56,892 nucleotides of DNA from an uncultured Peptostreptococcaceae bacterium (lineage in GTDB: Bacteria; Bacillota; Clostridia; Peptostreptococcales; BM714). Positions 8,666 through 54,904 of the stretch are shown here, in pieces; positions within the stretch are counted from its first letter, which is position 1; every line of letters begins with the position of its first letter. The position numbers and the translations under genes were made by a program. The stretch lies in the NCBI GenBank assembly GCA_964644525.1, contig CAZXWC010000003.1:1-56892 (forward strand). Direction: 5' to 3'. The notes beneath the pieces were generated by a model that saw only the letters and a program-made list of their open reading frames with translations, was not told the origin of the DNA and did not search any database.

Positions 8666-8672
8666 ATCCATA

Positions 8673-8720: not shown

Positions 8721-8781
8721 TCATGAAACGCAAAAATCACTTTAATTGTGTTGAAAAATACTGTTTTTATAGATGAATATC

Positions 8782-8798
8782 TTGGCACGACAATTGCG
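8782..8798 (+). promoter_or_regulatory. sigma-54 (-24/-12) promoter of the NhaC-family transporter
   Basis: TTGGCACGACAATTGCG, near-consensus TGGCAC-N5-TTGC. Confidence 0.85.
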
Positions 8799-8838
8799 AC
8801 TATTATATTTGCACTTAAAAATTTAGGAGGTATATAGC

Positions 8839-10287
8839 ATGAAAGACAAGAAACTCGAGTTTTACGGCGGCGAATGGATGTCCTTTATTCCATTTATTGT
8901 TTTCCTTGTACTCATCGTAATGACTACATTTGTTGCAGGTTCTATTTCCAACGGAGCTCTTTGGATTCCGGCCTTCATGGCCATGATTGTTGCATTTTTC
9001 TTTGCAAAGGACAAAAAAATCTTCAGCGAAACAATAATAAGCGGAATGGCAAGCAGAGAGGCTATAATTCCTGTGGTTTGTTGGATCTTTGCAGGAGTAT
9101 TCTCAAGAATACTTAGAGAATCGGGCCTTGCAGGAGGAATAGCCGGAATGGCTGCCAACATCGGTATAAGCGGGACCTTGTTTGTGGTGGTTTCATTTAT
9201 TGCATCTGCTGTATTTGCAACTGCATCAGGAACTGGATTTGGGACAATTGCAGCTGGAATGGGAGTTCTTTATCCTGCAGGAGTTGCGCTTGGGGCTCAC
9301 CCGGCACTGTTAGCAGGTTCAATTATATCCGGAGGAGCATTTGGAGACAATATGGCTCCTGTTTCGGATACTACAATTTGCTCGGCGACATCGCAGGGAG
9401 TTGATGTGCCCGGCGTTGTCAAGTCAAGGCTGAAATACGCATTAACTGCGGGGGCAATAACCATCGTGGGAATAATTATATTTGGAATGACTTCGAGTGG
9501 CACAGGCAACCCTGTGGGCCCAATAGAATATGAATCGATAGCCCTTTGGATGCTTGTTCCTGTAGCGCTTACGATTTATGTTGCAGTCAAGTCTGGTGAT
9601 ATAATAGTCGCCACTACTATCGGAAGTGTTATGGCAGGATTTACTGCTGTGCTTACAGGCATAATGGATTTCATACAAATAGATCCGGGTTCGGAAGTTA
9701 CAAAGAAAGCTTTGTTCAGGGTAGTAGGGGAAGGCCTTGACAGAACCGTTGATGGTGTAATTTATACCGGAATAAACAGCATGATCCAGGTTGTGCTATT
9801 AGCGATTCTTCTTTTTGGCTCTATTGCGATCATGAGAGCTGGTCATGGGGATGTAAAACTTTTGAAATCACTTGGAAAGGTTGCCAAGACTGCAAAAAGT
9901 GCTGAAATGTCAATAGCGGGAATGATTGTTACTCTTTCTGCACTTATGGGTCTGAATGCACCTGCCATATTGGCTATTGGATCTTCATTTGCCAAACCTC
10001 TTTCAAGAAAGCATGGAATCAGCCCATATAGGACAGCAAACTTGCTGGATGCAATTTCCTGTACATTGGTCTATTCCTTGCCATGGACACCTGCCATCAT
10101 ATACACCATAAGCTTTACAAGGGACAGCGCTTATCCTTTGACTGCTACACAGGTGACACCGTTTGTGTTCTATGCGGGAGCTATGCTTGTTGTAATGATT
10201 GCCAGCATATTCCTTGGTATAGGCAGGGATGACAACATGAATGGAAGAACCATAGCTGACTTTGAAAAAGAAGAAAAGGCAATGTAG
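8839..10287 (+). CDS. NhaC/Na+:H+ antiporter-family transporter, probably a Na+/amino acid transporter
   Basis: Polytopic membrane protein; SGTGFGTIAA, SGGAFGDNMAPVSDTTI signature of NhaC/MetT/ArcD-like carriers. Confidence 0.8.
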   Translation: MKDKKLEFYGGEWMSFIPFIVFLVLIVMTTFVAGSISNGALWIPAFMAMIVAFFFAKDKKIFSETIISGMASREAIIPVVCWIFAGVFSRILRESGLAGGIAGMAANIGISGTLFVVVSFIASAVFATASGTGFGTIAAGMGVLYPAGVALGAHPALLAGSIISGGAFGDNMAPVSDTTICSATSQGVDVPGVVKSRLKYALTAGAITIVGIIIFGMTSSGTGNPVGPIEYESIALWMLVPVALTIYVAVKSGDIIVATTIGSVMAGFTAVLTGIMDFIQIDPGSEVTKKALFRVVGEGLDRTVDGVIYTGINSMIQVVLLAILLFGSIAIMRAGHGDVKLLKSLGKVAKTAKSAEMSIAGMIVTLSALMGLNAPAILAIGSSFAKPLSRKHGISPYRTANLLDAISCTLVYSLPWTPAIIYTISFTRDSAYPLTATQVTPFVFYAGAMLVVMIASIFLGIGRDDNMNGRTIADFEKEEKAM

Positions 10288-10313
10288 ATTTTTAAAAGTA
10301 GTATTATATTCTT

Positions 10314-10365
10314 AAAAAGCACAGAATCCATTATTAGACAATAAATGGATTCTGTGCTTTTTTTT
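10314..10365. terminator. Bidirectional-type intrinsic terminator
   Basis: AAAAAGCACAGAATCCATT / AATGGATTCTGTGCTTTTT. Confidence 0.85.
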
Positions 10366-10385
10366 AAAAAACATATGTCAAAAAA

Positions 10386-10414
10386 TTTAGAAAATAAAGA
10401 AAAAATGATATAAT
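10386..10414 (+). promoter_or_regulatory. sigma-A promoter with extended -10 for the oxidoreductase operon
   Basis: TTTAGA-N17-TATAAT with TG at the extended position. Confidence 0.55.
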
Positions 10415-10451
10415 TCTATATAATACAACTTTCAAGCTGAGGAGGGATTAC

Positions 10452-10655
10452 ATGGACAGCGTGAAAATCATTTCTGGAAATTGCAAAGGTTGTGGATACT
10501 GTGTGGTGGTTTGTCCTAAAAAAGTTCTGGAAATAGGGGAATCTTCTAATAAAATGGGTTACAGGTATGCCACCGTAGCCAGGCCGGATGACTGCATAGC
10601 GTGCAAACTTTGCGCGGTTATGTGTCCGGATTCTGCCATAGAAATATTCGAATAG
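10452..10655 (+). CDS. 2x[4Fe-4S] ferredoxin, delta subunit of 2-oxoacid:ferredoxin oxidoreductase
   Basis: CKGCGYCVVVCP and CIACKLCAVMCP. Confidence 0.9.
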   Translation: MDSVKIISGNCKGCGYCVVVCPKKVLEIGESSNKMGYRYATVARPDDCIACKLCAVMCPDSAIEIFE

Positions 10656-10666
10656 GAGGTAAGCAG

Positions 10667-11740
10667 ATGAAAAAACATTTTATGAAAGGCTGCGAGGCGA
10701 TTGCGGAAGCGGCTCTAAGAGCCGGATGCACATTTTTTGCGGGCTATCCCATAACGCCTCAAAACGAGATTCCCGAGTACATGTCAAAAGAGCTGCCTCG
10801 ATATGGCGGAGTTTTTGTTCAAGGGGAAAGTGAAGTGGCTTCTGTCAATATGGTTCTTGGTGCGGCGGCTACAGGAGCGAGGGCTATGACATCTTCGTCG
10901 GGACCGGGAATAAGTTTGAAATCTGAAGGGATATCATACATAGCCGGATCAAGGTTGCCGGCTGTTATTGTCAGTGTTATGAGGGGTGGCCCAGGATTGG
11001 GTTCCATAATGCCGGCCCAGCAGGACTATCTGCAGGCTACCAAAGCTTCGGGTCATGGCGGATTCAGAATGATGGTTTTTGCGCCGTCCACCATACAGGA
11101 AGCTGTAGACTATACCCACAAGGCCTTCGACTATGCAGACAGGGACAGAAATCCTGTAATGATACTTGTAGACGGATGTTTGGGGGCCATGATGGAACCG
11201 GTTATTTTGCCCGAATACCACGACAACTGCAACAAGCAGGAGGACTGGGTTCTCGACGGATGCCGTCAAAGGGAGCCGAGGACTGTTTTGTCAGTATCCC
11301 TTACGGGGGAGCCCCAGGAGCAATTCAATATTGAGATGGCAAAACTTTATGAGTCATGGGCAGGGAAAGACACAGAAGTGGAGCTTTACGAAATGGATGA
11401 CGCGGAAATCGTTTTGGCCGCATACGGCACGAGCGCCAGAATAGCCAAAACTGCAATAGACACGCTCAGGGATGAAGGAGTAAAGGTTGGGCTGGTCAGG
11501 CCAATCACCTTGTATCCCTTCCCTTACGAGGTTTTTGAAAATCTTGACTACAAAAGGGTCAAGCATGTGCTTGATGTGGAAATGTCCATACCGGCGCAGA
11601 TGGTTGACGATGTAAGGCTGGGAGTTTTAAGGCGGGCTGAAATATCAACTTTTGGAAGGTCCGGAGGTGTCATCATAGGAGTGGATGAAATCGTTTGTGA
11701 AGTAAGAAGAATTGCTGAAGGGGGGGCTTTTAATGGATAA
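10667..11740 (+). CDS. 2-oxoacid:ferredoxin oxidoreductase alpha subunit (VorB/KorA-like)
   Basis: MKGCEAIAE...FAGYPITPQ, ESEVAS, TSSSGPG, RGGPGLG; start at ATG 10667 with RBS GGAGGT. Confidence 0.9.
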   Translation: MKKHFMKGCEAIAEAALRAGCTFFAGYPITPQNEIPEYMSKELPRYGGVFVQGESEVASVNMVLGAAATGARAMTSSSGPGISLKSEGISYIAGSRLPAVIVSVMRGGPGLGSIMPAQQDYLQATKASGHGGFRMMVFAPSTIQEAVDYTHKAFDYADRDRNPVMILVDGCLGAMMEPVILPEYHDNCNKQEDWVLDGCRQREPRTVLSVSLTGEPQEQFNIEMAKLYESWAGKDTEVELYEMDDAEIVLAAYGTSARIAKTAIDTLRDEGVKVGLVRPITLYPFPYEVFENLDYKRVKHVLDVEMSIPAQMVDDVRLGVLRRAEISTFGRSGGVIIGVDEIVCEVRRIAEGGAFNG

Positions 11741-12470
11741 AATCTATGGAAGGCCGGAGTCTATAAAGAACAGGGTAAGCACGTACTGCCCGGGCTGTCT
11801 ACATGGAGTTGCAAACAAAATAGTGGCTGAGGTTCTGGATGAGTTGGAACTCAGAGAAAAAACGATATGCGTTTTGCCTGTCGGGTGCGGGACACTAGGA
11901 CTCTTTTATTGGAATGTAGACATGATAAGCTCCGCCCATGGAAGGGCTCCTGCGGTTGCAACGGGCATAAAGAGATGCACGCCCGATAAATTCGTGTTTT
12001 GCTATCAGGGAGACGGGGACCTTGCCGCAATAGGCCTTTCGGAAATAATGCATGCCGCCAACCGTGGAGAGAACATATCCATTATTTTTGTAAACAACAG
12101 CATTTACGGAATGACCGGGGGACAGATGGCTCCCACGACTCTCGAGGACCAGTATTCTACAACCACGCAGAAGGGCAGAAACCCCATTACCGAAGGCTAT
12201 CCTATGAAGATGTGCGAAATAATATCCGGCCTTGAGGCGCCCAAATATGTTGCCAGGTTTTCCATGGATTGCCCAAAGAACATAATAAAGGCAAAGGCGG
12301 GCATCAAGAAAGCCTTTGAGCTGCAGATAGAGAAGAAAGGGTTTTCCTTTGTCGAGCTCATGTCCAACTGCCCGACCAACTGGGGTGTGACCCCGCTTGA
12401 GAGTCTTGAATGGATGCGCCAAAACACACTCAAGGTCTTTCCTCTCGGAGTTTACAAGGAGGTGGAGTGA
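11733..12470 (+). CDS. 2-oxoacid:ferredoxin oxidoreductase beta (TPP-binding) subunit
   Basis: YCPGCLHG, VGC, HGRAPAVATG, GDGD...NN..YGMTGGQ..PT, CPTNWG; start at ATG 11733. Confidence 0.9.
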   Translation: MDKIYGRPESIKNRVSTYCPGCLHGVANKIVAEVLDELELREKTICVLPVGCGTLGLFYWNVDMISSAHGRAPAVATGIKRCTPDKFVFCYQGDGDLAAIGLSEIMHAANRGENISIIFVNNSIYGMTGGQMAPTTLEDQYSTTTQKGRNPITEGYPMKMCEIISGLEAPKYVARFSMDCPKNIIKAKAGIKKAFELQIEKKGFSFVELMSNCPTNWGVTPLESLEWMRQNTLKVFPLGVYKEVE

Positions 12471-12471
12471 T

Positions 12472-12999
12472 ATGAAAAGCAGTCTCATCATAGGTGGTTT
12501 TGGCGGTCAGGGAATAATGCTGATGGGAAAACTCCTGGGCTATACGGCTTGCGAAGAAAGGCTTGAAGCTACATTTCTGCCTTCATATGGACCGGAACAG
12601 CGTGGGGGAACTGCAAATTGCCGGGTGGTTCTTTCGGATAAAAGGATAGGCTCACCCATAGAACCCAAAGTAGATGTTCTGATAGCAATGAACGAACCGT
12701 CGCTTGAAAGATTTGAGGAAGCGGTAAAAAACGACGGTGTGATTTTTGTCAACAGCAGCATAACTTCAAGAGAAACGTCATTCGGTGCGAAGGCTTTTTA
12801 TGTTCCTGCCGATGATATAGCATATAAAATTGGTTCCAAGAAGGTAGCCAACATAGTAATGCTAGGTGCATATATGGCAAAGGCTGGAATTTTGAGCGAA
12901 AGAGCTCTTGAGGCTGTGCTGAATGAAAAATTGGCCAAAAGGCCTGAACTGCTTGAAATGAACCGTTTGGCTTTATTAAGAGGGGCGGAAGTTGTTTGA
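12472..12999 (+). CDS. 2-oxoacid:ferredoxin oxidoreductase gamma subunit
   Basis: GGFGGQG, SYGPEQRGGTA, NIVMLGA; start at ATG 12472. Confidence 0.9.
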   Translation: MKSSLIIGGFGGQGIMLMGKLLGYTACEERLEATFLPSYGPEQRGGTANCRVVLSDKRIGSPIEPKVDVLIAMNEPSLERFEEAVKNDGVIFVNSSITSRETSFGAKAFYVPADDIAYKIGSKKVANIVMLGAYMAKAGILSERALEAVLNEKLAKRPELLEMNRLALLRGAEVV

Positions 13000-13010
13000 C
13001 CTATACGGAA

Positions 13011-13044
13011 AAATCCCCCGTTTGACCGGGGGATTTGTTTGTTT
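13011..13044 (+). terminator. Terminator after the oxidoreductase operon
   Basis: AAATCCCCCG / CGGGGGATTT followed by GTTTGTTT. Confidence 0.75.
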
Positions 13045-13120
13045 ATGATATGAAAAATGTTATTATGAGGCAAGATTAACTGCTTTGCAAATTGGATTTG
13101 ATTAAAGGAGGAAGCCAGCC

Positions 13121-14821
13121 ATGTATTTGCAAACAATAGCTCTTCATCTGTTCAGACAATTGGCTGTCTTTTTTATTTTCATATATCTTTTCAGCAGGTA
13201 CAAGGTTTTCAGAAAGATAATGACGAATGAGACGCCCCGTATTTCAGAGCGGATTTTTCTGATTGTTTTTTTTAGCGGCATATCCATTCTGGGAACGTAC
13301 ACTGGCGTTCCGGTAAAGAATGCCATAGCCAATACAAGGGCTGTAGGGATAATAGTATCCGGGTTGGTTGCGGGTCCGGTAGTTGGGACGATTGTTGGGA
13401 TGATAGTAGGAATACACAGGTATTTTATCGGGGGATTGACAATAATGGCCGCTTTGATATCCGCCGTCGGCCAAGGAATGCTTTCAGGATATCTTAGCAA
13501 GTGGATAAGCAAGCGTAGCCACTACTGGTTTGCGGGTTTCATGATAGGAGGAACGCTGGAAATTTTGCATATGCTGGTTGTAATTGCAATCACCCGCCCC
13601 ATAGAACCGGCTTTGGAACTAGTCCAGGTCATAGGGCCTCCTATGATTGTTGTAAATGCTTTTGGAGTAATGGCATTTTTGGCCATTCTTGAAAATGTGT
13701 ATAATGAACAGGAACGCATACAGGCAAACGCTGCGGAAAAGGCATTACAGATTGCCAACTTGACTTTGCCGGTGTTGAGAAAAGGGCTCAATTACAGTAC
13801 CGCGGAAGAGTTGGTAAGAATAATTTTTGACAGGGTAGAGGGGTTTGAGGCTATCTGCGTTGTTTCCAGAAAAAAAATCCTCGCTTCCATATTGGCTTCA
13901 GACAAAGGAATATTTCCTGAAAAGGGCCAAGAGCTTACTTCCGACAGTGTTCTGCGGGTTATAGAAACGGGCGAGGCTGGAATTGTTCCAAGGAGTTTTG
14001 AAGCTTCAAGCAGCAAAAAAATTACGGATTATACAAAAGTCATCGTTCCGCTAAAAGAGGAGACGGTAGTAGTCGGAGCCCTAATAATGTACAAGCCCGG
14101 ATTCGGAGGGGTTACCGTATTTGAATTGGAGCTTGCAAGGGGGCTTGCGCGTCTTATATCAACCCAATTGGAAATAAGTAAAATGCACCACAATGCTCAA
14201 CTTGTTTCCCAGGCAGAAGTCAAGGCCCTGCAGGCGCAGATAAATCCGCACTTTCTTTTCAATGCAATAAATACGATAGTTTACTACTGTATGACGGATG
14301 CCGAAAAAGCAAAGGATTTGATGATTTTTCTTGGAGAGTTCTATAGAAGCAATTTGACGGATTTCAAGCACAGGGTGGATATTGAAACGGAAATCCGCCA
14401 TGTGAATGCCTATGTCAGAATCGAAATGGCTCGTTTCGGAGAAAGGCTCAAGGTGAATTACCATATCAAGGAAGGAAAGGATTGCCTAATACCGCCTTTG
14501 ATTCTTCAGCCTCTTGTTGAAAATGCAATAAAGCACGGCGTTTTGCCTAAAAAAGAAGGCGGAAAAATAGACATATCGAGCCGAATTGAAGCCGGGCGGC
14601 TGATACTTGTTGTGGAGGATGACGGAGTCGGTACGGACATGGAAAAAATAAGAGGGATACTGAAGTATGATCCGCACCGAAAAAGCATAGGCCTATACAA
14701 TGTTTTCAGCAGAATGAAGAACATCTACAATGAAAATGTCATGCGGGTTGAAAGCGAGCCGGGAAAGGGAACTAAAGTCACAATATCAATACCGATTGAA
14801 GAAGGAGCTGTTCAAGAGTGA
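13121..14821 (+). CDS. LytS/YhcK-family sensor histidine kinase (5TM-LYT, GAF, HisK, HATPase)
   Basis: ANTRAVG...GL.AGP..G membrane domain; LQAQINPHFLFNAIN; LQPLVENAIKHG; DDGVG; GL.NV. Confidence 0.9.
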   Translation: MYLQTIALHLFRQLAVFFIFIYLFSRYKVFRKIMTNETPRISERIFLIVFFSGISILGTYTGVPVKNAIANTRAVGIIVSGLVAGPVVGTIVGMIVGIHRYFIGGLTIMAALISAVGQGMLSGYLSKWISKRSHYWFAGFMIGGTLEILHMLVVIAITRPIEPALELVQVIGPPMIVVNAFGVMAFLAILENVYNEQERIQANAAEKALQIANLTLPVLRKGLNYSTAEELVRIIFDRVEGFEAICVVSRKKILASILASDKGIFPEKGQELTSDSVLRVIETGEAGIVPRSFEASSSKKITDYTKVIVPLKEETVVVGALIMYKPGFGGVTVFELELARGLARLISTQLEISKMHHNAQLVSQAEVKALQAQINPHFLFNAINTIVYYCMTDAEKAKDLMIFLGEFYRSNLTDFKHRVDIETEIRHVNAYVRIEMARFGERLKVNYHIKEGKDCLIPPLILQPLVENAIKHGVLPKKEGGKIDISSRIEAGRLILVVEDDGVGTDMEKIRGILKYDPHRKSIGLYNVFSRMKNIYNENVMRVESEPGKGTKVTISIPIEEGAVQE

Positions 14822-15558
14822 GGATACTCATAGTTGACGATGAATTCCCTGCAAGGGAGATTCTGAAGATGTTTATAAACGAGATAACGGATATAGACGA
14901 AATACACGAGCGCGAGGACGGGCAGGAGGCGGTCGATTTTCTGAAAAAACACGAGGTTGATTTGGTCATGCTGGACATCCATATGAGCGTCAAGGATGGT
15001 TTGGCCGCCGCGGAAGAGATAAACAAGCTCAAGAATCCTCCACTTATAGTGTTTACGACCGGGTATGGAGAATATGCCCTGAAGGCATTCGAGAAAAAGG
15101 CTGTCGACTATATAATGAAGCCTTACTCGAAAGACCGTCTTAAGCAGACCTTCGAACGAATAGCGGAATTGGGAGTGGGGGCATGCTCGCGAGGGGATAT
15201 GGACAATTGGTATATGAAAATGGGAAAGATTCCTGTTTGGTCAAAAGACCGCCTGCTGGTGATAAGCGTGCATGACATACTCTTTGTCACTCCGCACAGC
15301 AAGGGCAAGGTGACGCTGTTTACACGGGATGGAGAGTTTGTCTACAAGGCGAATCTTGGAAGCCTCGAAAAATGTTTCGAGTCTGAATCTTTTCTCAGGG
15401 TCCACAAGAGCTATGTGGTGAATCTGGAGGAGATAGAGGAAATTATGCCGTGGTTCAACAGCACCTATATGCTTTCAATGAAAAACTACGGCGGGGACAA
15501 TATTCCTGTGAGCAGGCACTACATCAGGGAATTTAAAAAGGCAACCGGAATAGAATAG
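14818..15558 (+). CDS. LytTR-family response regulator
   Basis: IVDDE, LDIHM, FTTGY..YAL.AF...AVDY..KP; FLRVHKSYVVN, IPVSR; GTG start overlapping the kinase stop. Confidence 0.92.
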   Translation: MRILIVDDEFPAREILKMFINEITDIDEIHEREDGQEAVDFLKKHEVDLVMLDIHMSVKDGLAAAEEINKLKNPPLIVFTTGYGEYALKAFEKKAVDYIMKPYSKDRLKQTFERIAELGVGACSRGDMDNWYMKMGKIPVWSKDRLLVISVHDILFVTPHSKGKVTLFTRDGEFVYKANLGSLEKCFESESFLRVHKSYVVNLEEIEEIMPWFNSTYMLSMKNYGGDNIPVSRHYIREFKKATGIE

Positions 15559-15580
15559 AAGCCCTGCAACTTGGGGAATG

Positions 15581-15609
15581 AAAATGGACTCTTGGGTCCA
15601 TTTTTTTTT
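15581..15609 (+). terminator. Terminator after the LytTR regulator
   Basis: AAAATGGAC / GTCCATTTT plus a T run. Confidence 0.75.
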
Positions 15610-15753
15610 ATGTTGAAGAAACCGGGCATTGGCCACTAGAAAGTCGTGTTATTTTTATGACAGGCAAGCTTCATCGCCGTCGGAGAAGTGGCCAATCTTT
15701 GGCGGCAGGAATTTATCTATTCATTTGAAACATAATTTATGGGAGGTGCTGTA

Positions 15754-16146
15754 GTGGTAATTTTTGGTGGAATGATATTGTCGATTTGCATGTTTTTAGG
15801 TTTGTTTGTAGGTGATTTGCTTGGAAAAGCCATTGGAGTCAAGGGCAATGTCGGCGGTATCGGATTTGCGATGTTGCTGTTGGTTGTAGTGGTAGAATAT
15901 TTGCTTAAGAACGACATGATTTCTCAGAAGGCGCAGGACGGAATATACTACTGGCGGTATATGTACATACCACTCGTTGTAGCGATGGCATGCAGGCAAA
16001 ATGTTGTTGCAGCACTCAAGGGCGGACCTGTAGCAATAATATCCGGCGTTCTTGTTGTTATAGTACTCTTCTTGCTTGTTCCTTTGGTAACCAGACTTAT
16101 ACCGAAAAGCAAAATGGAATCTATAGATGAAGAGGAGGCGATCTAA
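15754..16146 (+). CDS. madL: Malonate transporter subunit MadL-like
   Basis: GDLLG..IGVKGNVGGIGFAM, YIP.VVAMA..QNVVAAL.GGPVA; start at GTG 15754 with GGAGG 7 nt upstream. Confidence 0.85.
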   Translation: MVIFGGMILSICMFLGLFVGDLLGKAIGVKGNVGGIGFAMLLLVVVVEYLLKNDMISQKAQDGIYYWRYMYIPLVVAMACRQNVVAALKGGPVAIISGVLVVIVLFLLVPLVTRLIPKSKMESIDEEEAI

Positions 16147-16913
16147 TGAATTTTATTGATATTGCTGTTGGCATATTTGTTAAATACGGATTGGTTATGT
16201 CCTTCATAACAATCGGAGCCATAATGGCTGTTTCAATCAAGCTTTCTGAAATGACAAACAAGCGGATTGCGGGATCGGCAATCGCCATAACAATCGGTCT
16301 GGTGCTTGCTTACTTCGGAGGTACATACGCCGGCGGATCTCACGGATTGGCGGACATTGCATTTTTCTCCGGAATTGGAGTAATGGGCGGCAAGATGCTT
16401 TTGAACTACGGGATCGTAGCAACAGCAATGGGCGTTCGTTTTGAAGAAATAAAAAAAGTCGGGTTCGCAGGCGTGCTGTCGCTCTTTGTGGGTGTATTCG
16501 CAGCTTATGGCGTTGGCGCACTTGTAGCATACGCTCTTGGATACCATGATCCTGTCGAGGTTTGCACGATAGCTTCAGGCACAACAGGATTCCTGATTGG
16601 TCCGGTAGTCGGGGAAGCCCTCGGAGGATCTTCGGCAGCGGTTACAATCGGCGTTGCATCGGGCGTGCTCAAGGCAGTTATAGTCATGATTGTCACTCCT
16701 TATGTAGCAAAAAGAATTGGACTTGACAACCCTCAAACAGCAATGGTGTTCGGAGGAATACTCGGTACTACAAGTGGAACTGTTGCCGGCTTGGCAGCGA
16801 CCGATGTCAGATTGGTGCCATACGGAGCAATGACTGCGACATTCTTCTCGGGTCTTGGAGTTCTTCTTTGCCCGTCGGTCATGTTCTTATTGACAAAAAT
16901 GATTCTGGGATAG
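16146..16913 (+). CDS. madM: Malonate transporter subunit MadM-like
   Basis: GSAIAI..GL.LAYFGG...GG..GLADI..F.G.G.MGG, P..AM.FGG..GTTSG...GLAATD..LVPYGAMTATF..GLG.L. Confidence 0.88.
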   Translation: MNFIDIAVGIFVKYGLVMSFITIGAIMAVSIKLSEMTNKRIAGSAIAITIGLVLAYFGGTYAGGSHGLADIAFFSGIGVMGGKMLLNYGIVATAMGVRFEEIKKVGFAGVLSLFVGVFAAYGVGALVAYALGYHDPVEVCTIASGTTGFLIGPVVGEALGGSSAAVTIGVASGVLKAVIVMIVTPYVAKRIGLDNPQTAMVFGGILGTTSGTVAGLAATDVRLVPYGAMTATFFSGLGVLLCPSVMFLLTKMILG

Positions 16914-16923
16914 CTGACTGCAT

Positions 16924-16963
16924 CTGCCGGAGGCTGAAGGTTCTAGCTTCCGGCAGCTTGTTT
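16924..16963 (+). terminator. Intra-operon stem-loop (weak terminator or mRNA stabiliser)
   Basis: CTGCCGGAGGCT / AGCTTCCGGCAG followed by CTTGTTT. Confidence 0.5.
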
Positions 16964-16992
16964 GATTGATTCGGCAATACGGGAGGGATGCT

Positions 16993-17766
16993 ATGAAAAT
17001 TTACGTGCTTACAGACAACCATGCGCTCAGAAATTTTGATGCGGAGTGGGGATTGTCATTCTTCATCGAGGTTGACGGCAAAACGATTCTTTTCGACTAT
17101 GGAAATACGGATCTTTATGTAAAGAACTCGATAAAACTTGGACTTGACATTTTCAATGCCGACTACTTTGTTTTAAGCCACGGACATTGGGACCATGGGA
17201 ACGGTTTGGTGCATTTGCCTAAAGGCAAACTGATTTGCCATCCGGGTTCATTCATAAAAAGATATCGCGGAAGCACATATCTGGGTTTGCCCTACACGTA
17301 CGAGCAAGCCGATGAGAAATTTCAACTCGACATGCACAGCGAAGCGTATGAATTTACCGAAAACATTTTTTTCATGGGGACTGTTCCTAGAGTTACATCG
17401 TTTGAGTCCAAAGGTACAGACCAGATTCTCGAGAGCGGGGAACTCGATCTTGTTGAGGACGACTCCGGGATTGCAATAAAAACGGAAAAAGGGCTCGTGG
17501 TAATTTCGGGATGCGCTCACGCAGGCATTTGTAATACAATCGAACACGCCAAAGAGATCACCGGAGAGGACAATGTCTATGCTGTCCTCGGAGGATTTCA
17601 TTTGAAGGGTGGAGATGAATTGACCGAATTGACCATCGAATATTTGAAGAAGCAGGATATTGAGTTTATCAGCACAAGTCATTGCACGAGATTTCCCGCA
17701 TTGGTCGAGTTTGCTAACGCTTTTGGAAGCAGTCCATTCGAAACTGGACAGATTTTGGAACTTTGA
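16993..17766 (+). CDS. MBL-fold metallo-hydrolase (COG1237-like)
   Basis: EWGLSF, LFDYG, LSHGHWDHGNGL, SGCAHAGICN, LGGFHL, SHCT; start at ATG 16993 with RBS GGAGG. Confidence 0.88.
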   Translation: MKIYVLTDNHALRNFDAEWGLSFFIEVDGKTILFDYGNTDLYVKNSIKLGLDIFNADYFVLSHGHWDHGNGLVHLPKGKLICHPGSFIKRYRGSTYLGLPYTYEQADEKFQLDMHSEAYEFTENIFFMGTVPRVTSFESKGTDQILESGELDLVEDDSGIAIKTEKGLVVISGCAHAGICNTIEHAKEITGEDNVYAVLGGFHLKGGDELTELTIEYLKKQDIEFISTSHCTRFPALVEFANAFGSSPFETGQILEL

Positions 17767-17786
17767 TAGAAAAGGCAGGTGGCGAT

Positions 17787-18998
17787 ATGCCAAGCGCATT
17801 GGAAGGAATAAAAATATTGGATTTGGGGCATGTGTTGGCGGCTCCGTTTTGCACTATGATTTTGGCTGATTTGGGAGCTCAAGTAATAAAACTGGAATCA
17901 CCCATTGGAGACGACTCCAGGCAGTTTGGCCCATTTATAGGGGAAGATAATGGAAAAGGGAAACAGAGTGGTTATTTTATAAGTATAAACAGAAACAAAA
18001 AAAGCATGTGCGTCAATTTGAAAAAGCCTGAAGGGAAAGCGCTGCTCAGGGACTTGATTAAGAAATGCGATGTGGTAGTGGAAAACTTCAGACCTACAAC
18101 AATGAAGAAATTGGGTTTTTCATACGAGGAAATGAAGGAAATCAATCCGGCAATAATATATTGTTCCATATGCGGATTTGGACATGACGCATTACCGGAA
18201 AATGCGGAAAAGCCGGCATACGACATGGTGGCACAAGCTTACAGCGGTCTGATGAGCATAACCGGACACGAAGGTTTTTCTCCTTGTAGGGTGGGTACAT
18301 CTGTTGGCGACATAGTGGCGGGACATCAGGCCGCGATAGGAATACTTGGAGCCCTCAATTACAGAGACCGCACCGGCAAAGGTCAGTATGTAGACATATC
18401 GATGGTGGACGGATTGGTATACATTATGGAAAATGCCATCGCCCGCTATACTATAAAAGGGGAGGTTCCTCAACCATTGGGATCGGCGCATCCAACAATA
18501 ACGCCTTTTCAGGCTTTTAAAACGAAGGACAGCTGGATAATTACTCCGATAGGTAACGATTCGCTGTGGAAGAATTTTTGCAAGGCTCTCAGCATTGAAG
18601 AACTCGCTGAGGATGATCGCTTTGCGACCAATCCTATGAGAACCGTTAACAAGGTTGAGCTTGAAAAAATAGTTTCAATTGTATTGGAAGCAAAGACTAC
18701 AGATGAGTGGGCGTCAATCTTCGATGAATATAAATTGCCTTATTCCAGAATTAACGATGTAGAACAGGTTGTAAACGACGAGCAGATAAACTATAGGAAA
18801 ATGATTGTCGAGATTGACCAGCCCAAGGTCGGCCCTATGAAAATCATAGGAACGCCTTTCCACATGACTGAAACTCCGGGAGAGGTTCGGAGTCCGGCGC
18901 CGCTTCTTGGAGAGCATACCGAAGAGATGCTTAGGGAGCTTCTGCAAATGGAACCGGAAGTGATTGAATTGCTTCGCCAATCGGAAACAATATTTTAA
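17787..18998 (+). CDS. Class III CoA-transferase (CaiB/BaiF/Frc family)
   Basis: ILDL..VLAAPF....LADLGAQVIKLE.P.GDDSR, NRNKKS, DVVVENFRP, AYDMVAQ (catalytic Asp), APLLGEHT; start at ATG 17787. Confidence 0.92.
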   Translation: MPSALEGIKILDLGHVLAAPFCTMILADLGAQVIKLESPIGDDSRQFGPFIGEDNGKGKQSGYFISINRNKKSMCVNLKKPEGKALLRDLIKKCDVVVENFRPTTMKKLGFSYEEMKEINPAIIYCSICGFGHDALPENAEKPAYDMVAQAYSGLMSITGHEGFSPCRVGTSVGDIVAGHQAAIGILGALNYRDRTGKGQYVDISMVDGLVYIMENAIARYTIKGEVPQPLGSAHPTITPFQAFKTKDSWIITPIGNDSLWKNFCKALSIEELAEDDRFATNPMRTVNKVELEKIVSIVLEAKTTDEWASIFDEYKLPYSRINDVEQVVNDEQINYRKMIVEIDQPKVGPMKIIGTPFHMTETPGEVRSPAPLLGEHTEEMLRELLQMEPEVIELLRQSETIF

Positions 18999-19035
18999 GA
19001 GGTGTATCAGAAACCACAATATATAAGATTACACG

Positions 19036-19071
19036 AAGAACTGTCGCTTCGCCTAGAGCGGCGGTTTCTTT
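19036..19071 (+). terminator. Terminator after the CoA-transferase
   Basis: AAGAACTGTCGCTT / GAGCGGCGGTTTCTT stem with G-U pairs. Confidence 0.55.
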
Positions 19072-19125
19072 GCGTCGAGGAGCTGGTTTTTTCTATTGTA
19101 GACAGGTATTTATTGCCGCTCTTCA

Positions 19126-19154
19126 TTGATATATGGGGGGCGGCATGATATACT
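19126..19154 (+). promoter_or_regulatory. sigma-A promoter of the cobalamin operon
   Basis: TTGATA-N17-TATACT with extended TG. Confidence 0.7.
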
Positions 19155-19164
19155 GTGCATGGAA

Positions 19165-19320
19165 TCAATCAAAAAAATGCTTTGTTTAAGGGAAAAGGGT
19201 GCAAAGCCCTTGCTGTAGTCGCAGCTGTAACCGGGGATGGAAACCGAAAATTGCCACTGTACTCGAATGTATGGGAAGGTTCGGCCAAACAGATGATCCG
19301 GAAGCCAGAAGACCTGACTG
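19165..19320 (+). ncRNA. Cobalamin (B12) riboswitch aptamer
   Basis: TAAGGGAA...GGGTGCAAAGCCC, GCAGCTGTAA, GCCACTG(19253)...TGGGAAGG(19272), B12-box AGCCAGAAGACCTG(19303-16); located upstream of an ECF/DUF4430 operon. The 5' arm is atypical. Confidence 0.8.
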
Positions 19321-19419
19321 AGTGTTTTTCAAATCTGCTCCGGCTCTGAGGGATTGAAAAAATACAGATCTTGATCTAAAGGCTGTTTTTCTATCCCAAA
19401 AGGCAAGAACTGTATGAAT

Positions 19420-19454
19420 CTCTCTCCAAATCGGAGGGAGTTTGTTGTTTTTTT
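19420..19454 (+). terminator. Riboswitch expression-platform terminator
   Basis: CTCTCTCC / GGAGGGAG hairpin plus TTTGTTGTTTTTTT immediately before the RBS of the first gene. Confidence 0.7.
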
Positions 19455-19467
19455 GGAGGAATACATA

Positions 19468-20391
19468 ATGAGAAAAAAAATGATTGCAGCGGCTTTGGCT
19501 GTTATGTTTCTTTTGTCGGGATGCGCCGAAAATGAAATGGCACAGCCGGAAAATCGGCAACTCACAATTCTTGTGACAAGGGACTACGGACGGGAAATTC
19601 TTGCGGAAAGGTCCGTTTATCCATCCGAAGGCGATACGGTCATGGACCTTATGCAGGACAATTTTACCGTTGAGACTGCATACGGAGGCGGCTTTGTAAA
19701 CGCAATAGACGGCTTGAAGTCGGGCTATACCGGAAAAGGAAGTAGCCAAAAGAAAGGAACAAAAAAAGACTGGTTTTATTATGTAAACGGAGTGATGGCG
19801 GAGATTGGTGCGGATCAATATATGTGCGATGAAGCCAATGCTGTTTCGTGGGACTTTCACGATTGGGGCGGAGACATGTACGTGAAGACTCGAATAAACG
19901 CCTGGCCGGAAAGGCTCAAGGGAAGAAGCGTCGAAATGGCATTCGGACAGACTTTTGAAAAAGATGCGGTCAGAATAAGGGAAGCCTTCGAAGAGGCGGG
20001 AGGAAGAGTAGCAGAATCAACTGTGGAATCTCTTGATATGGAAGACCTTGAAAAAGACGCTTTGTTTGTGGGGACATGGCAAGATGCAAATAAAAACGAA
20101 TTTATAAAGGGAGTTTTTGAAAACCGCGAAAAGGCGGGAATATATTCCTATTTCAATGAAAAAGGACTTATGCTTTTCGACAACAATGGAGAAATAACGG
20201 CAACAAGGCAAAAAGGCGCAATAGCCGCATCTGTGCAGAAGGCTTACGGGTCTGAGGCTTCGGTCCTTCTGTTAGTCGGAAACGAGGTATCAATGATAGA
20301 AAAAATTGTAGATGTATTTTTGGACAGAGAGTCAGCCAAGGGCGCTTTCGGAATTGCTGCTACTGAGGAAGGTGTTTGCTATGTGCCATAA
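19468..20391 (+). CDS. Lipoprotein with DUF4430 (transcobalamin C-terminal/beta-like) domain
   Basis: Signal peptide with lipobox LSGC; TVMDLM..., FVNAIDG, WFYYVNG....GA motif typical of DUF4430; start at ATG 19468 (RBS GGAGG). Confidence 0.8.
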   Translation: MRKKMIAAALAVMFLLSGCAENEMAQPENRQLTILVTRDYGREILAERSVYPSEGDTVMDLMQDNFTVETAYGGGFVNAIDGLKSGYTGKGSSQKKGTKKDWFYYVNGVMAEIGADQYMCDEANAVSWDFHDWGGDMYVKTRINAWPERLKGRSVEMAFGQTFEKDAVRIREAFEEAGGRVAESTVESLDMEDLEKDALFVGTWQDANKNEFIKGVFENREKAGIYSYFNEKGLMLFDNNGEITATRQKGAIAASVQKAYGSEASVLLLVGNEVSMIEKIVDVFLDRESAKGAFGIAATEEGVCYVP

Positions 20392-21265
20392 ACTTCATCC
20401 GGCAAATGCCATGCTTTTGCTGGCTGTTCTTATTTCTGCCACACTTTTGGTCAGTCATCCTGTCCATTCCGCCTTGCTTGTATCGGTTCTGTCTTTTTCT
20501 GTGGCAGCCTTTGGCGGGGCCGGGGAACTGAAGGGATTGCTGAAGTTTTGGATAGTTACCGGAATTATGATTCTAATAATTAATCCGCTCGTTTCAACAC
20601 AGGGCCACACCGTATTGTTTCGCACGGTTCTTCCCATTGCGGGCAGGATTAGGATAACGGTTGAATCGCTTGCTTTTGCAGGACTTATGGTCTTGAGGCT
20701 TTTTTCCATGGTTTTGGTGATAAAGCTTTTCGGACTTTCTATAGACAGGGACGATTTTTTCGGATACCTGTCGCGTTACATGAACAAGCTGGTGCTTACA
20801 ATGAGCATGACTGTAAACATGATCCACAGGCTGAGGGTGGAAATACAGAGAGTAAGTGAAGTGATGGCCATGAGGGGCCTGGATTTGAAATCCGGAGGTT
20901 TGGTAAAAAGGACAAGGGCCTATTACCCCATGATAAAGGTAGTGCTCATAAGTTCTTTGGAAGGGTCTGTAAACCGGGCCGAGGCGCTTTATTCCAGGGG
21001 CTACGGAAAGGGCAAGAGAAGTTTTTACAGAGAAATAGGAATGACCGGCAAAGACCGTTTGCATATGGTCGCGCTTTGCATATACACAATTGTGTTTTTT
21101 TGGGGAATATATAAGGGTTGGCTGGGATTCAGCTTTTTCCCTGCGATTTCACCGAAAAGCGATTTCAGTTTGATTTATTTTGTGGCACATGCAACAAGTC
21201 TGGCAGTATTGATTGAAGCGACAAGGAGGTGTTCGGCTTGGAAGTTTTCAACATGGAAAATTTAA
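20381..21265 (+). CDS. ECF transporter transmembrane T component
   Basis: LHP N-terminus, INPL...QG.T.L, coupling helices with MAMRG and ALYSRGY; start at ATG 20381. Confidence 0.85.
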   Translation: MCHKLHPANAMLLLAVLISATLLVSHPVHSALLVSVLSFSVAAFGGAGELKGLLKFWIVTGIMILIINPLVSTQGHTVLFRTVLPIAGRIRITVESLAFAGLMVLRLFSMVLVIKLFGLSIDRDDFFGYLSRYMNKLVLTMSMTVNMIHRLRVEIQRVSEVMAMRGLDLKSGGLVKRTRAYYPMIKVVLISSLEGSVNRAEALYSRGYGKGKRSFYREIGMTGKDRLHMVALCIYTIVFFWGIYKGWLGFSFFPAISPKSDFSLIYFVAHATSLAVLIEATRRCSAWKFSTWKI

Positions 21266-22806
21266 CATACCATTATCCCAATAAGGACAGGCCGGCGCTT
21301 TCGCGACTGGACCTTAAAATACATGATGGTGAATTTCTTGTGGTGGCAGGAGCTTCGGGCTCCGGAAAATCAACCCTTGCCAGGATAATATCGCGTTTGG
21401 CACCCGAATTTTACGGGGGAAAGATAGAAGGGCGGGTGAATGGCACAAGAGACATAGGAATGGTTTTTCAGGACCCCGAGAAGCAGCTTGTAATGGAGAC
21501 CGTAGAGAGGGAAGTCGCTTTTCCTTTGGAAAACAGAGGGGTTGAAAGAAAGCTCATGAAGAAGCAGGTTCTCGAGGTTTTGAGCCTTTTGGGAATCTGG
21601 CATCTCAAGGATAAAAAGACATACGAATTGTCTGGCGGCGAAAAACAGAAGGTTGCGATTGCGGCCGCTTTAGCCGTAAGAAACAGATTTCTCGTGCTTG
21701 ACGAGCCGGTCTCGCAGCTCGACCCCATGGCTGCCGACGAAATAATGCACATTCTAAAAAAACTCAACGATGACTTGGGTTTCACCATAGTTCTTGTGGA
21801 GCAAAGGACAGAAAAATGCCTCAGCTACGCTGACCGGGTAGTGTTTCTGGACAATGGGGAAATAGCTTTTATCGGAAAGCCGCCTGAATATGTAAAGTGG
21901 GCGGGCAGGCATGACTGCAATTTTTTGCCTCCTGTGACGGAGCTGTTTTGGAGACTGGAATCCAATAATTTGCCGCTGACGGTCAAGCAAGGCAGAGAAC
22001 TCATAAACAGCAATTATGATGTGGCTGCAAATGCCTTGGGAAAACCTTTTCTTACGGCCAAAAGCAAAGCGATGACCTTGAAAAAAGTCGGTTTTTCATT
22101 CGGCGATGGGACTATGGCGCTGAGCTCGGTGACGCTCGATGTTGGCAAGGGCGAGACTTTGGGGATAATAGGAGCCAACGGGGCCGGGAAATCCACAGCC
22201 TTGCGAATAATGGCGGGACTTCTCAAGCCAAGCAAGGGTAAGGCGGAAGCGTACGGAGCGGTAGGATATCTTTCGCAGGAGCCAAACGACTATCTTTTCA
22301 ATGACACGGTTTACGAAGAACTGCTCTTTACCCAGAAGAACTTCGAGAAGATCGATTGCGATTTGATTGAGGAAATTTTATGCGATCTGGATATGGAATC
22401 CAAAAGGAATATAAATCCCAGGGACTTGTCGGGAGGAGAAAGGCAAAGGGTGGCGCTCGCTTCCGTTTTGGCCATGAAGCCTCAAATACTTCTTTTGGAC
22501 GAGCCGACACGGGGTCTCAACAAGGGTTACAAAATGCGCCTGGCGGCATACCTCGGGAATCTGAAAAGAAAGGGAAAAACAATTGTTCTTGTTACCCACG
22601 ATATGGAATTCGTTGCCGAAGTTTGCGATAGGGCGGTAATAATGTTTGACGGCCAAGTTGCGCAGGAAGGACCGACAAGTGAAATTTTGTCGGGAGGTCT
22701 CCATTTTACGACGGATATAAATCGCATGTTCCATGGAATGGCAAGCCCCTTAAGGATAGAAGAGGCTGAGGGCATATGCGTTAAAAAGGGGAGTGGAGGA
22801 CCATGA
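21238..22806 (+). CDS. ECF transporter ATPase with two fused ABC domains
   Basis: GASGSGKST / LSGGEKQK / LDEP and GANGAGKST / LSGGERQR / LDEPT; FQDPE; probable TTG start at 21238 (AGGAGG upstream). Confidence 0.92.
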   Translation: MEVFNMENLTYHYPNKDRPALSRLDLKIHDGEFLVVAGASGSGKSTLARIISRLAPEFYGGKIEGRVNGTRDIGMVFQDPEKQLVMETVEREVAFPLENRGVERKLMKKQVLEVLSLLGIWHLKDKKTYELSGGEKQKVAIAAALAVRNRFLVLDEPVSQLDPMAADEIMHILKKLNDDLGFTIVLVEQRTEKCLSYADRVVFLDNGEIAFIGKPPEYVKWAGRHDCNFLPPVTELFWRLESNNLPLTVKQGRELINSNYDVAANALGKPFLTAKSKAMTLKKVGFSFGDGTMALSSVTLDVGKGETLGIIGANGAGKSTALRIMAGLLKPSKGKAEAYGAVGYLSQEPNDYLFNDTVYEELLFTQKNFEKIDCDLIEEILCDLDMESKRNINPRDLSGGERQRVALASVLAMKPQILLLDEPTRGLNKGYKMRLAAYLGNLKRKGKTIVLVTHDMEFVAEVCDRAVIMFDGQVAQEGPTSEILSGGLHFTTDINRMFHGMASPLRIEEAEGICVKKGSGGP

Positions 22807-23438
22807 ATTTGGGAATAGTTTTGGCGGCCCTGCTTCTTGGAATGATGGCCTTGATACTTTGGCTCTACGAAAGCAGAAAGACAAATGTAAGGGAAATAGC
22901 TTTGGTTTCAACCCTGGCGGCCTTGGCGGCCGTGTCGAGAATATTTTTTGCGGCGCTTCCAAACATACAGCCGACCACTTTCATAGTGGTGACATCGGGT
23001 TTTGTATTCGGACCCAGTTTCGGTTTCATGACAGGGGCGATAGCGGCCTTTCTTTCAAACAATTTTCTAGGCCACGGACCGTGGACTCCTTGGCAGATGC
23101 TTGCATGGGGATTGGCGGGATTAATATCAGGACTTATAAGGAAGAGCGGAATACACAAAAGCAGAATGCTTTTCACGGTTTACGCTTTCATGTGGGGCTT
23201 TCTGTTTGACTGGCTGATGAACCTCTGGCACTGGCTTTTTTTCATCTATCCATTGAACTTTCGGAGTTTTATTGCTGTTTATGCGGCATCGTTCTACTTC
23301 GACATGCTGCATGCAGCGGGAAACGGGGTTTTCGCATTTCTGTTCGGAAAGGACCTTGTGAATATTCTGGGAAGATATAAGGAAAAACTTAGCTACGACA
23401 GGATTGATCAATCTACATATAAGGATGTGGCGGAATGA
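22803..23438 (+). CDS. ECF S component, CbrT-like (cobalamin)
   Basis: LAA.SR.....PNIQP.T, SN.FLG.GPWTPWQM.AWG, D..HA.GN motifs seen in CbrT-like S components; B12 riboswitch context. Confidence 0.82.
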   Translation: MNLGIVLAALLLGMMALILWLYESRKTNVREIALVSTLAALAAVSRIFFAALPNIQPTTFIVVTSGFVFGPSFGFMTGAIAAFLSNNFLGHGPWTPWQMLAWGLAGLISGLIRKSGIHKSRMLFTVYAFMWGFLFDWLMNLWHWLFFIYPLNFRSFIAVYAASFYFDMLHAAGNGVFAFLFGKDLVNILGRYKEKLSYDRIDQSTYKDVAE

Positions 23439-24742: not shown

Positions 24743-24765
24743 ACTGGCAAACGGAGGAACAATCA

Positions 24766-54896: not shown

Positions 54897-54904
54897 GACC
54901 GCAG

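Follow-up and report, generated by a model that had tools for sequence, protein, structure and literature searches.

A MadLM-type carrier encoded with a family III CoA-transferase: a candidate front end of a small-dicarboxylate decarboxylation pathway

Introduction

What does a carrier of the MadLM family do when no malonate decarboxylase is encoded next to it? The question is raised by a stretch of 56,892 nucleotides (nt) from an uncultured Peptostreptococcaceae bacterium (contig CAZXWC010000003.1; this whole stretch is hereinafter the window). Six consecutive genes, all on the plus strand according to the open reading frame (ORF) list, Pfam and NCBIfam, encode a LytS-type kinase, a LytTR-type regulator, the carrier subunits MadL and MadM, an MBL-fold metallo-hydrolase and a CoA-transferase of family III (CaiB/BaiF). 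A terminator separates the regulator gene from madL, a hairpin lies between madM and the hydrolase gene, and a terminator follows the transferase gene. This gene order and the hairpin positions had been described in an initial annotation made from the sequence alone, and are confirmed by the ORFs, Pfam, NCBIfam and hairpin calls. The same annotation proposed that a small dicarboxylate is sensed, imported and activated directly to its CoA ester. Comparison with relatives leads us to favor, on balance, the view that the region represents the half of a small-dicarboxylate decarboxylation pathway that senses, imports and activates the acid.

The module in relatives

A neighborhood search shows that the pairing of MadLM with a family III transferase is recurrent, with at least eight independent lineages: that of the window, L173, L180, the Peptococcaceae L016/L018, Fusibacter L047, Halanaerobium L086, the Synergistota L168/L169/L076, and L170 (L numbers denote the loci compared). 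In several of these lineages, as the initial annotation would have it, LytS/LytTR accompanies MadLM and CaiB. Genes for a Na+-pumping decarboxylase lie immediately beside the module in five of the eight. Bacillota and Synergistota both show the carrier associated with the family III transferase and a Na+-pumping biotin decarboxylase of the Mmd type, with the genes arranged in several ways. The gene identities, the gene order and this recurrent adjacency to Mmd-type decarboxylase genes in the relatives are direct observations.

The module order of the window recurs in L084, L173 and L180 and partly in L004, and the arrangement is therefore more than chance. L084 has both the gene order and the flanks of the window, at ~74% nucleotide identity (85% for the transferase). 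In L173 (MadM 86%, MBL protein 72% identical), the series LytS-LytTR-MadL-MadM-MBL-CaiB continues into an MmdA-like Carboxyl_trans protein, OAD_gamma, a biotin carrier, OAD_beta and a hotdog thioesterase. The same six genes as in the window are found in L180/L181 (MadM 85%, MBL protein 73%, transferase 72%); past the module, a 780-bp gap with a terminator-like hairpin is followed by the N and C domains of a mutase, MeaB, an epimerase and MmdA-gamma-BCCP-beta, and the methylmalonyl-CoA mutase/MeaB/epimerase stretch passes the respective equivalogs. Fusibacter ferrireducens (L047) encodes a dCache kinase and a sigma-54 regulator, then CaiB-MadL-MadM-MmdA-like-gamma-BCCP-OAD_beta, where the decarboxylase scores are 930 bits for MmdA and 507 bits for Na_pump_decarbB. 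The order CaiB-MadL-MadM-Carboxyl_trans-gamma-BCCP-OAD_beta is present in the 2.2-Mb genome of L170, and in the Synergistota metagenome-assembled genomes (MAGs) L168/L169 an OAD_beta gene is located 30 nt upstream of CaiB-MadL-MadM. The remaining arrangements include CaiB-MadL-MadM alone in L086, LytS-LytTR-CaiB-MadL-MadM in L016, and CaiB-LytS-LytTR in L171.

To place these loci within the carrier family, 80 MadM loci were fetched from GTDB species representatives, of which ~75 were usable; their neighbors were clustered and the main clusters annotated. Malonate-related genes adjoin ~40 of the ~75 loci. Mdc or Malonomonas-type Mad genes (MdcA, CitG, MdcG, acyl carrier protein (ACP), MdcD/E, MdcH, OAD_beta) are found at ~17, and an acyl-CoA ligase, with acyl-CoA synthetase and malonyl-CoA synthase models as the best NCBIfam matches, both below the cut-off, at ~23. 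A family III transferase is next to four of the ~75, and many loci in Clostridia MAGs are accompanied by a LysR regulator only. As a family, MadLM is tied to malonate enzymes, and the transferase context is a minority. MdcA, CitG and MdcG are absent from all the CaiB-linked MadLM loci, and no malonate-specific enzyme (Mdc/Mad decarboxylase or malonyl-CoA synthetase) is encoded in the window or in any CaiB-linked locus.

As the initial annotation stated, mdc/mad decarboxylase, ACP and biotin genes are missing from the window. Among ORFs of 200 amino acids (aa) or more across the 56.9 kb, a Pfam scan detects no decarboxylase, ACP, biotin carrier or mutase, and tblastn with queries from the relatives gives no match in the window for MmdA, OAD_gamma, BCCP, OAD_beta, mutase, MeaB or epimerase. 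For MdcA/MadA, CitG/MdcB, MdcG, ACP and the carboxyltransferase subunits, the absence is by Pfam only, without tblastn queries, and ORFs below 200 aa, the size of an ACP, are not covered. The sole Biotin_lipoyl_2 match belongs to a HlyD-type membrane-fusion protein (52763-53992). A search for decarboxylase remnants 3' of the transferase gene yielded none; the intergenic DNA there leads into a cobalamin riboswitch. The Mmd-type set that adjoins the homologous module in L173, L180, L047, L170 and L168/L169 is not beside the carrier and transferase genes of the window, and therefore, if the region is half of a decarboxylation pathway, the decarboxylase must be encoded elsewhere in the genome. The description of the locus as lacking a malonate decarboxylase is thus correct locally, but the relatives present the module as the front end of a decarboxylation pathway.

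Proposed pathway and substrate

In the pathway that we favor, the LytS/LytTR pair would sense a small carboxylate and switch on the madL promoter, so that the carrier and the enzymes are induced, and the MadLM-type carrier would bring the acid in. The family III transferase would then move CoA from the end product of the pathway itself to the acid, with no ATP spent; the donor would be acetyl-CoA in the case of malonate, and propionyl-CoA in the case of succinate or methylmalonate. Malonyl- or methylmalonyl-CoA would be decarboxylated by a membrane-bound, biotin-dependent, Na+-pumping enzyme of the MmdA type encoded outside the window, a step that would both regenerate the donor CoA ester and conserve energy. 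We infer the substrate, the CoA donor, the direction of flux and the regulation by LytS/LytTR from the gene content. The notion of sensing, import and activation put forward in the initial annotation largely survives, with decarboxylase genes beside the module in relatives; malonate as the substrate is not secure.

Malonate is the leading candidate, although short of a probable one. It would be converted by an acetyl-CoA:malonate CoA-transferase (EC 2.8.3.3), followed by decarboxylation of malonyl-CoA, as in Sporomusa malonica. This choice is favored by the family assignment, the MadLM census, the existence of CaiB-MadLM-Mmd operons without a mutase, and the interchangeability of the parts (see below). 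In particular, neither a mutase nor an epimerase is seen in the CaiB-MadLM-decarboxylase operons of L047, L170 and L168/L169, which therefore fit a three-step malonate route. Succinate, a possible but less likely substrate, is favored by L180, the remodeled carrier and, weakly, the adjacent B12 transporter. Another acid is somewhat less likely still. The putative specificity residue of the carboxyltransferase, at the position that we take to correspond to Asp422 of Streptomyces PccB, is Ile in L047, L173 and L180 alike and does not discriminate between malonyl- and methylmalonyl-CoA.

The carrier

Both carrier subunits exceed the NCBIfam cut-offs of the malonate-carrier equivalogs. MadL matches PF03817 with 143.5 bits and TIGR00807 with 134.7 bits (cut-off 113.45), and MadM matches PF03818 with 314.9 bits and TIGR00808 with 285.3 bits (cut-off 236.3). 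The MadM clade of the window has the lowest TIGR00808 scores, 285-304 bits compared with 308-382 bits for the other MadM proteins tested. In a neighbor-joining tree, which has no bootstrap support and is used only together with the residue census below, this clade (window, L084, L173, L180 and L004) forms a long branch of its own, and each of its members is accompanied by LytS and an MBL gene. A second transferase-linked clade consists of L016, L018, L047, L076, L086, L168 and L170. The best MadM match in a named genome, with 79% identity, is that of L004, an Aminobacteriaceae (Synergistota) MAG.

In the carriers linked to Mdc genes or to the ligase, 76 MadM positions are at least 93% conserved, and the window protein fully keeps 62 of these. 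Nine positions are changed throughout the window clade, in each of its five members (R86L, or M, D87N, T148G, V151I, T155V, A167T, S169G, T235S and C239V), and show 89-100% conservation in all remaining groups, the second transferase-linked clade among them. At position 164 the window clade has lost the usual acidic residue; E157 and, mostly, K83 are gained. All five members have identical new residues, and the changed site is therefore under selection. MadL retains the residues conserved in the family and shows no comparable changes. Loss of an Arg-Asp pair and of Thr/Ser residues in a Na+-coupled carboxylate carrier suggests a change of the substrate or of the coupling ion. Because the window MadM lacks residues that are conserved elsewhere, malonate cannot be read from the family name. 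In correction of the initial annotation, the carrier is not a typical MadLM, and one close relative ties the module to succinate-to-propionate genes.

A stronger version of this argument, which we regard as doubtful, is that the MadLM of the window type is a new functional subfamily and not a Na+/malonate symporter. It would carry another acid (succinate or a substituted dicarboxylate) or use another coupling (dicarboxylate/monocarboxylate exchange); the transferase would be either the orphan EC 2.8.3.3 enzyme or a non-canonical succinate:propionyl-CoA transferase, and the MBL protein would be an obligatory third component.

The CoA-transferase

The transferase matches PF02515 over its full length (434.6 bits, profile positions 1-366 of 366). 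The closest solved structures, human SUGCT (9br6, 303 bits) and E. coli YfdE (4hl6, 261 bits), are both dicarboxylate enzymes. Residue D175 (svgDivag) is nearly invariant within the transferase clade and aligns with the Asp of a motif shared by SUGCT, YfdE and a formyl-CoA transferase, which we take, from the Frc/YfdE literature, to be the catalytic residue that carries the acyl/CoA intermediate.

The transferases of the module form two clades with ~50% identity between them. Clade A (window, L084, L085, L086, L168, L170, L171 and L076) shows 64-87% mutual identity, and clade B (L173, L047, L016 and L093) 52-61%. All four combinations of clades A and B with the window-type and canonical MadM occur; therefore the parts look functionally interchangeable, which counts against a change of substrate. 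The exact transferase sequence of the window is found on metagenome contigs only, and the DNA runs that contain the region are labeled soil and marine sediment. Contigs with the module include ENA ERZ27257087 k141_50656 and ERZ18242372 NODE_10 and JGI 3300026156. A metagenome scan with the transferase alignment gave, among the matches listed, mostly distant family III proteins with 37-58% identity; L102 and L118, also among the matches listed, have such distant transferases beside Mmd genes.

The MBL-fold protein

The Pfam match of the MBL protein is weak, with sequence matches in the PDB to 3h3e, 7dck and 2p4z. The residues H63, H65, D67, H68, H176 and H203 are invariant and, because the metal ligands are thus retained, the protein is probably an active enzyme. 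The AlphaFold2 model (pLDDT 94.8) has a TM-score of 0.89 to 3h3e, and a Foldseek search identifies TM1679, 2p4z and the phosphodiesterase tw9814 as the nearest neighbors, followed by the PhnP family, Apyc1 and RNase Z. A role as a thioesterase was considered and rejected, since no structure of the glyoxalase II type is among the best 50 Foldseek matches. Judging from the model, the protein resembles phosphodiesterases and not thioesterases, and the fold comparison gives no sign that it acts on thioesters or dicarboxylates.

Evidence against the pathway and alternative explanations

Several observations weigh against the region being half of a decarboxylation pathway. The Na+-pumping acyl-CoA decarboxylase that the initial annotation suggested looking for adjoins the module in five relative lineages but is present neither in the 56.9-kb window nor in its syntenic relative L084. 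The module of L004 has no transferase within 4 kb. In the Peptococcaceae L085 (MAG GCA_029907655.1, 8366-11212), the order is LytS-LytTR-SSF symporter-CaiB, with a clade A transferase 71% identical to that of the window, so that MadLM is replaced by an unrelated carrier, of a family known for proline, pantothenate and monocarboxylates. The transferase of the window passes no curated NCBIfam equivalog, scoring 350 bits for succinyl-CoA:mesaconate (cut-off 700), 335 for succinate--glutarate (750), 290 for CoA:oxalate (522) and 262 for Frc (504). The changes of the MadM clade at conserved residues, together with its low TIGR00808 scores, indicate that the substrate or the coupling ion may differ. 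The proposed scheme gives the MBL protein no role. Finally, L180 ties the module to succinate-to-propionate genes.

The last point leads to the most serious alternative, in our estimate unlikely, namely that the module is the front end of succinate-to-propionate conversion. The divergent MadLM would import succinate and the family III enzyme would be a propionyl-CoA:succinate CoA-transferase, followed by a B12-dependent mutase, an epimerase and the Na+-pumping methylmalonyl-CoA decarboxylase; the route would be that of Propionigenium or Veillonella, with another carrier and another family of transferase. In L180/L181, which has the transferase most similar to that of the window outside the window's own lineage, the module is directly upstream of precisely these genes, and no other CoA-transferase is encoded in the readable stretch of the mutase operon; yet this operon is a separate transcription unit behind the terminator-like hairpin. 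In the operons of L173, L047 and L170, the decarboxylase is not accompanied by a mutase or an epimerase, and both of the latter are absent from the window. The replacement of conserved polar and charged residues in the window MadM is what one would expect to see after a change of substrate, but clade A transferases also pair with the canonical MadM (L170, L086 and L168). A cobalamin-riboswitch ECF transporter lies directly 3' of the module in the window and L084, and the mutase needs B12; B12 riboswitches before transporters are common, however, and the adjacency may be a coincidence. Conservation of the clade A transferases is 60-70% over many anaerobic phyla, which might be expected of an enzyme of a central pathway. 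S. malonica itself, to judge from a title cited in a review, grows on malonate or succinate.

A second alternative gives the MBL protein the first step. Some other substrate (an ester, a lactone, a phosphodiester or a substituted dicarboxylate, e.g., methylmalonate) would be imported and processed by the MBL enzyme, and the product activated with CoA; the carrier and the MBL protein would form the core pair, with the transferase as an add-on. We consider this improbable. In each of the five loci of the window clade, also in L004 with no transferase nearby, madM is followed by the MBL gene, which is absent from every canonical MadLM locus; the substitutions T148G, S169G and T155V would enlarge the binding site or raise its hydrophobicity, and the invariant metal ligands point to a probably active enzyme. 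MBL homologs with 56-65% identity, however, occupy unrelated contexts in a widespread family, so that the fold by itself says little, the only characterized near neighbor is a phosphodiesterase, which suggests no route to a dicarboxylate, and no neighborhood offers a candidate substrate.

That the carrier, the MBL protein and the transferase are mere neighbors and the carrier serves an mdc/mad decarboxylase encoded elsewhere is very improbable: the missing decarboxylase, the hairpin that divides madM from the MBL and transferase genes, and the transferase-less L004 would agree with it, but the transferase adjoins MadLM in all those Bacillota and Synergistota lineages in different gene orders, MdcA, CitG and MdcG are encoded in none of these loci, and the spacing is operon-like.

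Organization and regulation of the locus

The features of the locus are collected in Table 1.

Table 1. Features of the carrier-transferase locus and its 3' boundary (positions in the window)
Feature	Position	Strand	Evidence or remark
LytS-type kinase	13121-14821	+	Pfam 5TM-5TMR_LYT, GAF-like, His_kinase, HATPase_c
LytTR-type response regulator	14818-15558	+	Pfam Response_reg + LytTR; start overlaps lytS stop codon
Intrinsic terminator 3' of lytR	15580-15614	+	11-bp stem 15580-15605, then T9
Putative madL promoter/leader	15615-15753	+	Inverted repeat ATTGGCCACT (15628-15637) / AGTGGCCAAT (15687-15696)
madL, small carrier subunit	15754-16146	+	PF03817, TIGR00807; alternative ATG 15739
madM, large carrier subunit	16146-16913	+	PF03818, TIGR00808
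madM-MBL stem-loop	16924-16956	+	13-bp stem, weak U tract
MBL-fold metallo-hydrolase, TM1679 / tw9814 type	16993 (true start)-17766	+	HGHWDH metal motif
Family III (CaiB/BaiF) CoA-transferase, clade A	17787 (true start)-18998	+	PF02515
Terminator-like hairpins closing the unit	~19036-19095	+	3' of transferase gene
Cobalamin riboswitch	19166-19335		Rfam 96.9 bits; belongs to downstream ECF-transporter operon

The sensor pair is complete in its domain architecture, with a 5TM-LYT, His_kinase and HATPase_c kinase adjoining a receiver and LytTR regulator (Pfam). LytS homologs with 48-52% identity flank CaiB and/or MadLM in L016, L085, L171, L173 and L180. The kinase passes no NCBIfam equivalog. 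The regulator scores 178.8 bits for LytR (cut-off 375) and 151.5 bits for BtsR (cut-off 246), and by these scores is a member of the family that is an ortholog of neither. In a Dialister MAG (L051, ~7000-11000), a LytS/LytTR pair 30-35% identical to that of the window is encoded divergently from MadLM-MdcA; at this locus, the sensor family is linked to a malonate decarboxylase cluster of the ACP type.

The stem after the regulator gene with its run of T has the form of a good intrinsic terminator, and the hairpin is kept in L002 and L084. The madL leader contains a TGGCCAA box common to the window, L002 and L084, and this box or the inverted repeat may be a LytTR site or a promoter element. 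A partial match to a sigma-54 promoter 5' of madL is not conserved in L002 and L084 and was rejected. The madL stop overlaps the madM start at 16146. The position of the hairpin between madM and the MBL gene is also occupied in L002, L084, L173 and L180, by a different sequence, with runs of U following in L173 and L180; the hairpin is probably a partial terminator or an mRNA-stabilizing element that would reduce enzyme expression in relation to that of the carrier. Because only 20 nt, with a ribosome-binding site, separate the MBL stop from the transferase start, these two genes are very probably co-transcribed.

Flanking regions

Both flanks are units separate from the module. Upstream, a VorDABC-like 2-oxoacid:ferredoxin oxidoreductase operon (10452-12999) has its own promoter and terminator; it was considered as part of the module and rejected, with synteny confined to the close lineage (L084 and L002) and absent in L173, L180 and L004. 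Downstream, the cobalamin riboswitch is followed by the DUF4430/CbiQ/ABC/ECF-S operon. The region 19166-29835 comprises the riboswitch, DUF4430, CbiQ, a double ABC ATPase, the ECF S component, an SLH/prenyltransferase-like protein and a protein of 1689 aa, an identical copy of which in L001 has Big_2, DUF4430 and SLH domains; it is probably an operon for surface and uptake functions under B12 control. The riboswitch/ECF arrangement is also found 3' of the transferase gene in L084.

Farther upstream, 3516-10287 encodes a histidine kinase with a solute-binding domain, a sigma-54 regulator, a small OrtA-like ORF (~6960-7262), OrtB and an NhaC-type carrier. OrtB (2-amino-4-oxopentanoate thiolase beta) scores 811.6 bits in NCBIfam (cut-off 550), and this region is an ornithine-fermentation thiolase module. 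A T-box leader (33841-34081, Rfam 98.4 bits, gathering score 93) is located directly 5' of an ammonium-transporter gene (34015-35388, Pfam Ammonium_transp 414 bits), an unusual target for a T-box. A pan motif RNA (54902-54997, Rfam 55.4 bits) precedes ORFs at 55120-55998 and 55982-56824.

Three observations concern the relatives. The JGI contig of L002 (3300026156) is ~80-88% identical in nucleotides to window positions 7787-19432 up to ~17.4 kb and then 100% identical through the transferase gene to the end of the contig; the jump reflects either related strains that recombined or a chimeric assembly. In L180, a further family III transferase, with 51% identity to that of the window, is encoded just upstream of the module (1-4034) with AllG, a cyclase, CN_hydrolase and a nucleotidyltransferase, and looks like another unassigned pathway. 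In L168/L169/L076, the genes 3' of MadM form a meta-cleavage-like set: a PaaK-like phenylacetate-CoA ligase, IclR, a QRPTase-like protein, a MoCF_biosynth-domain protein, an FAA-hydrolase-fold protein, acetaldehyde dehydrogenase and an HMG-lyase-like aldolase.

Relation to known systems

Growth with malonate or succinate decarboxylation as the only source of energy is a classic example of life at the edge of what thermodynamics permits. For the ACP-based malonate decarboxylases, the genes are understood; for the CoA-transferase route, thirty years old in physiological terms, we found none assigned. The CaiB-MadLM-Mmd cluster of the cultured F. ferrireducens offers a handle either for this orphan activity or for a family III succinate CoA-transferase. 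The altered MadM residues point to the substrate- or ion-binding site in a carrier family for which we know of no solved structure. There is also a warning for annotation, in that an equivalog model assigns the label 'malonate transporter MadM' to proteins that possibly do something else. A literature search whose coverage excludes most subscription journals found no paper in which MadLM is connected with a family III transferase and a decarboxylase of the Mmd type.

The closest physiological precedent is S. malonica, where, according to what Dehning and Schink are said to have reported in 1994 on the basis of enzyme activities, malonate is degraded via malonyl-CoA through the action of malonate CoA-transferase (EC 2.8.3.3) and malonyl-CoA decarboxylase. 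As in the pathway proposed here, the dicarboxylate is activated by CoA transfer from the ester of the product, the acyl-CoA is then decarboxylated, and no ACP-based Mdc/Mad enzyme takes part. The difference is that only activities are at hand, and no paper was found that ties this route to MadLM, a family III transferase or LytS/LytTR. Of two reviews, one lists EC 2.8.3.3, and the other gives it as having no function number in KEGG. The route is therefore not undescribed, as the initial annotation had supposed, since malonate degradation via malonyl-CoA has long been known physiologically; it is the assignment of genes that looks new.

The mad cluster of Malonomonas rubra and the mdc clusters of Pseudomonas, Acinetobacter and Klebsiella share the two-subunit MadL/MadM family with the window, and Malonomonas also has a Na+-pumping biotin decarboxylase of the OAD_beta family, as do the relatives of the window. 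In these clusters, however, malonate is activated on a dedicated ACP (MdcA/MadA, CitG, MdcG), none of which is found beside the CaiB-linked carriers, and the Mdc/Mad-linked MadM keeps the conserved residues that the window MadM lacks.

Decarboxylation of succinate to propionate is known from Propionigenium modestum, Veillonella (MmdABCDE) and E. coli (Sbm-YgfG-YgfH). This pathway resembles the proposed one in the Mmd-type Na+-translocating decarboxylase and the CoA-transferase cycle and, in L180, also in the adjoining mutase, MeaB and epimerase. The known propionyl-CoA:succinate transferases (YgfH/ScpC type) are family I and not family III CoA-transferases, and in the literature searched neither a MadLM-type carrier nor LytS/LytTR control is linked to this pathway.

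In Oxalobacter formigenes, the antiporter OxlT, the family III formyl-CoA transferase Frc and oxalyl-CoA decarboxylase (compare YfdE/YfdW of E. coli) offer the same combination of a dicarboxylate carrier, a family III CoA-transferase and an acyl-CoA decarboxylase, with the product CoA ester recycled as the donor, and YfdE is the third-best solved homolog of the window transferase. The Oxalobacter system differs in having an MFS carrier and a soluble thiamine pyrophosphate-dependent decarboxylase and in conserving energy by electrogenic exchange instead of a Na+ pump, and the Frc/YfdE equivalog models score the window transferase at 262-290 bits, below their cut-offs of 442-522.

For the sensor, carboxylate sensing by LytS/LytTR pairs is known from BtsS/BtsR-BtsT and YpdA/YpdB-YhjX of E. 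coli and LytS/LytT-PftAB of B. subtilis. These have the same kinase-regulator architecture beside the gene of a carrier that is presumably induced. They respond to pyruvate and are known to control monocarboxylate carriers only, whereas the module of the window includes a CoA-transferase and, in relatives, a decarboxylase; if the proposed pathway is correct, the module would give a LytS-type sensor a substrate other than pyruvate. Taken together, these comparisons indicate that the logic of the pathway is known, whereas the set of genes and the pairing of a divergent carrier with an MBL protein appear to be new.

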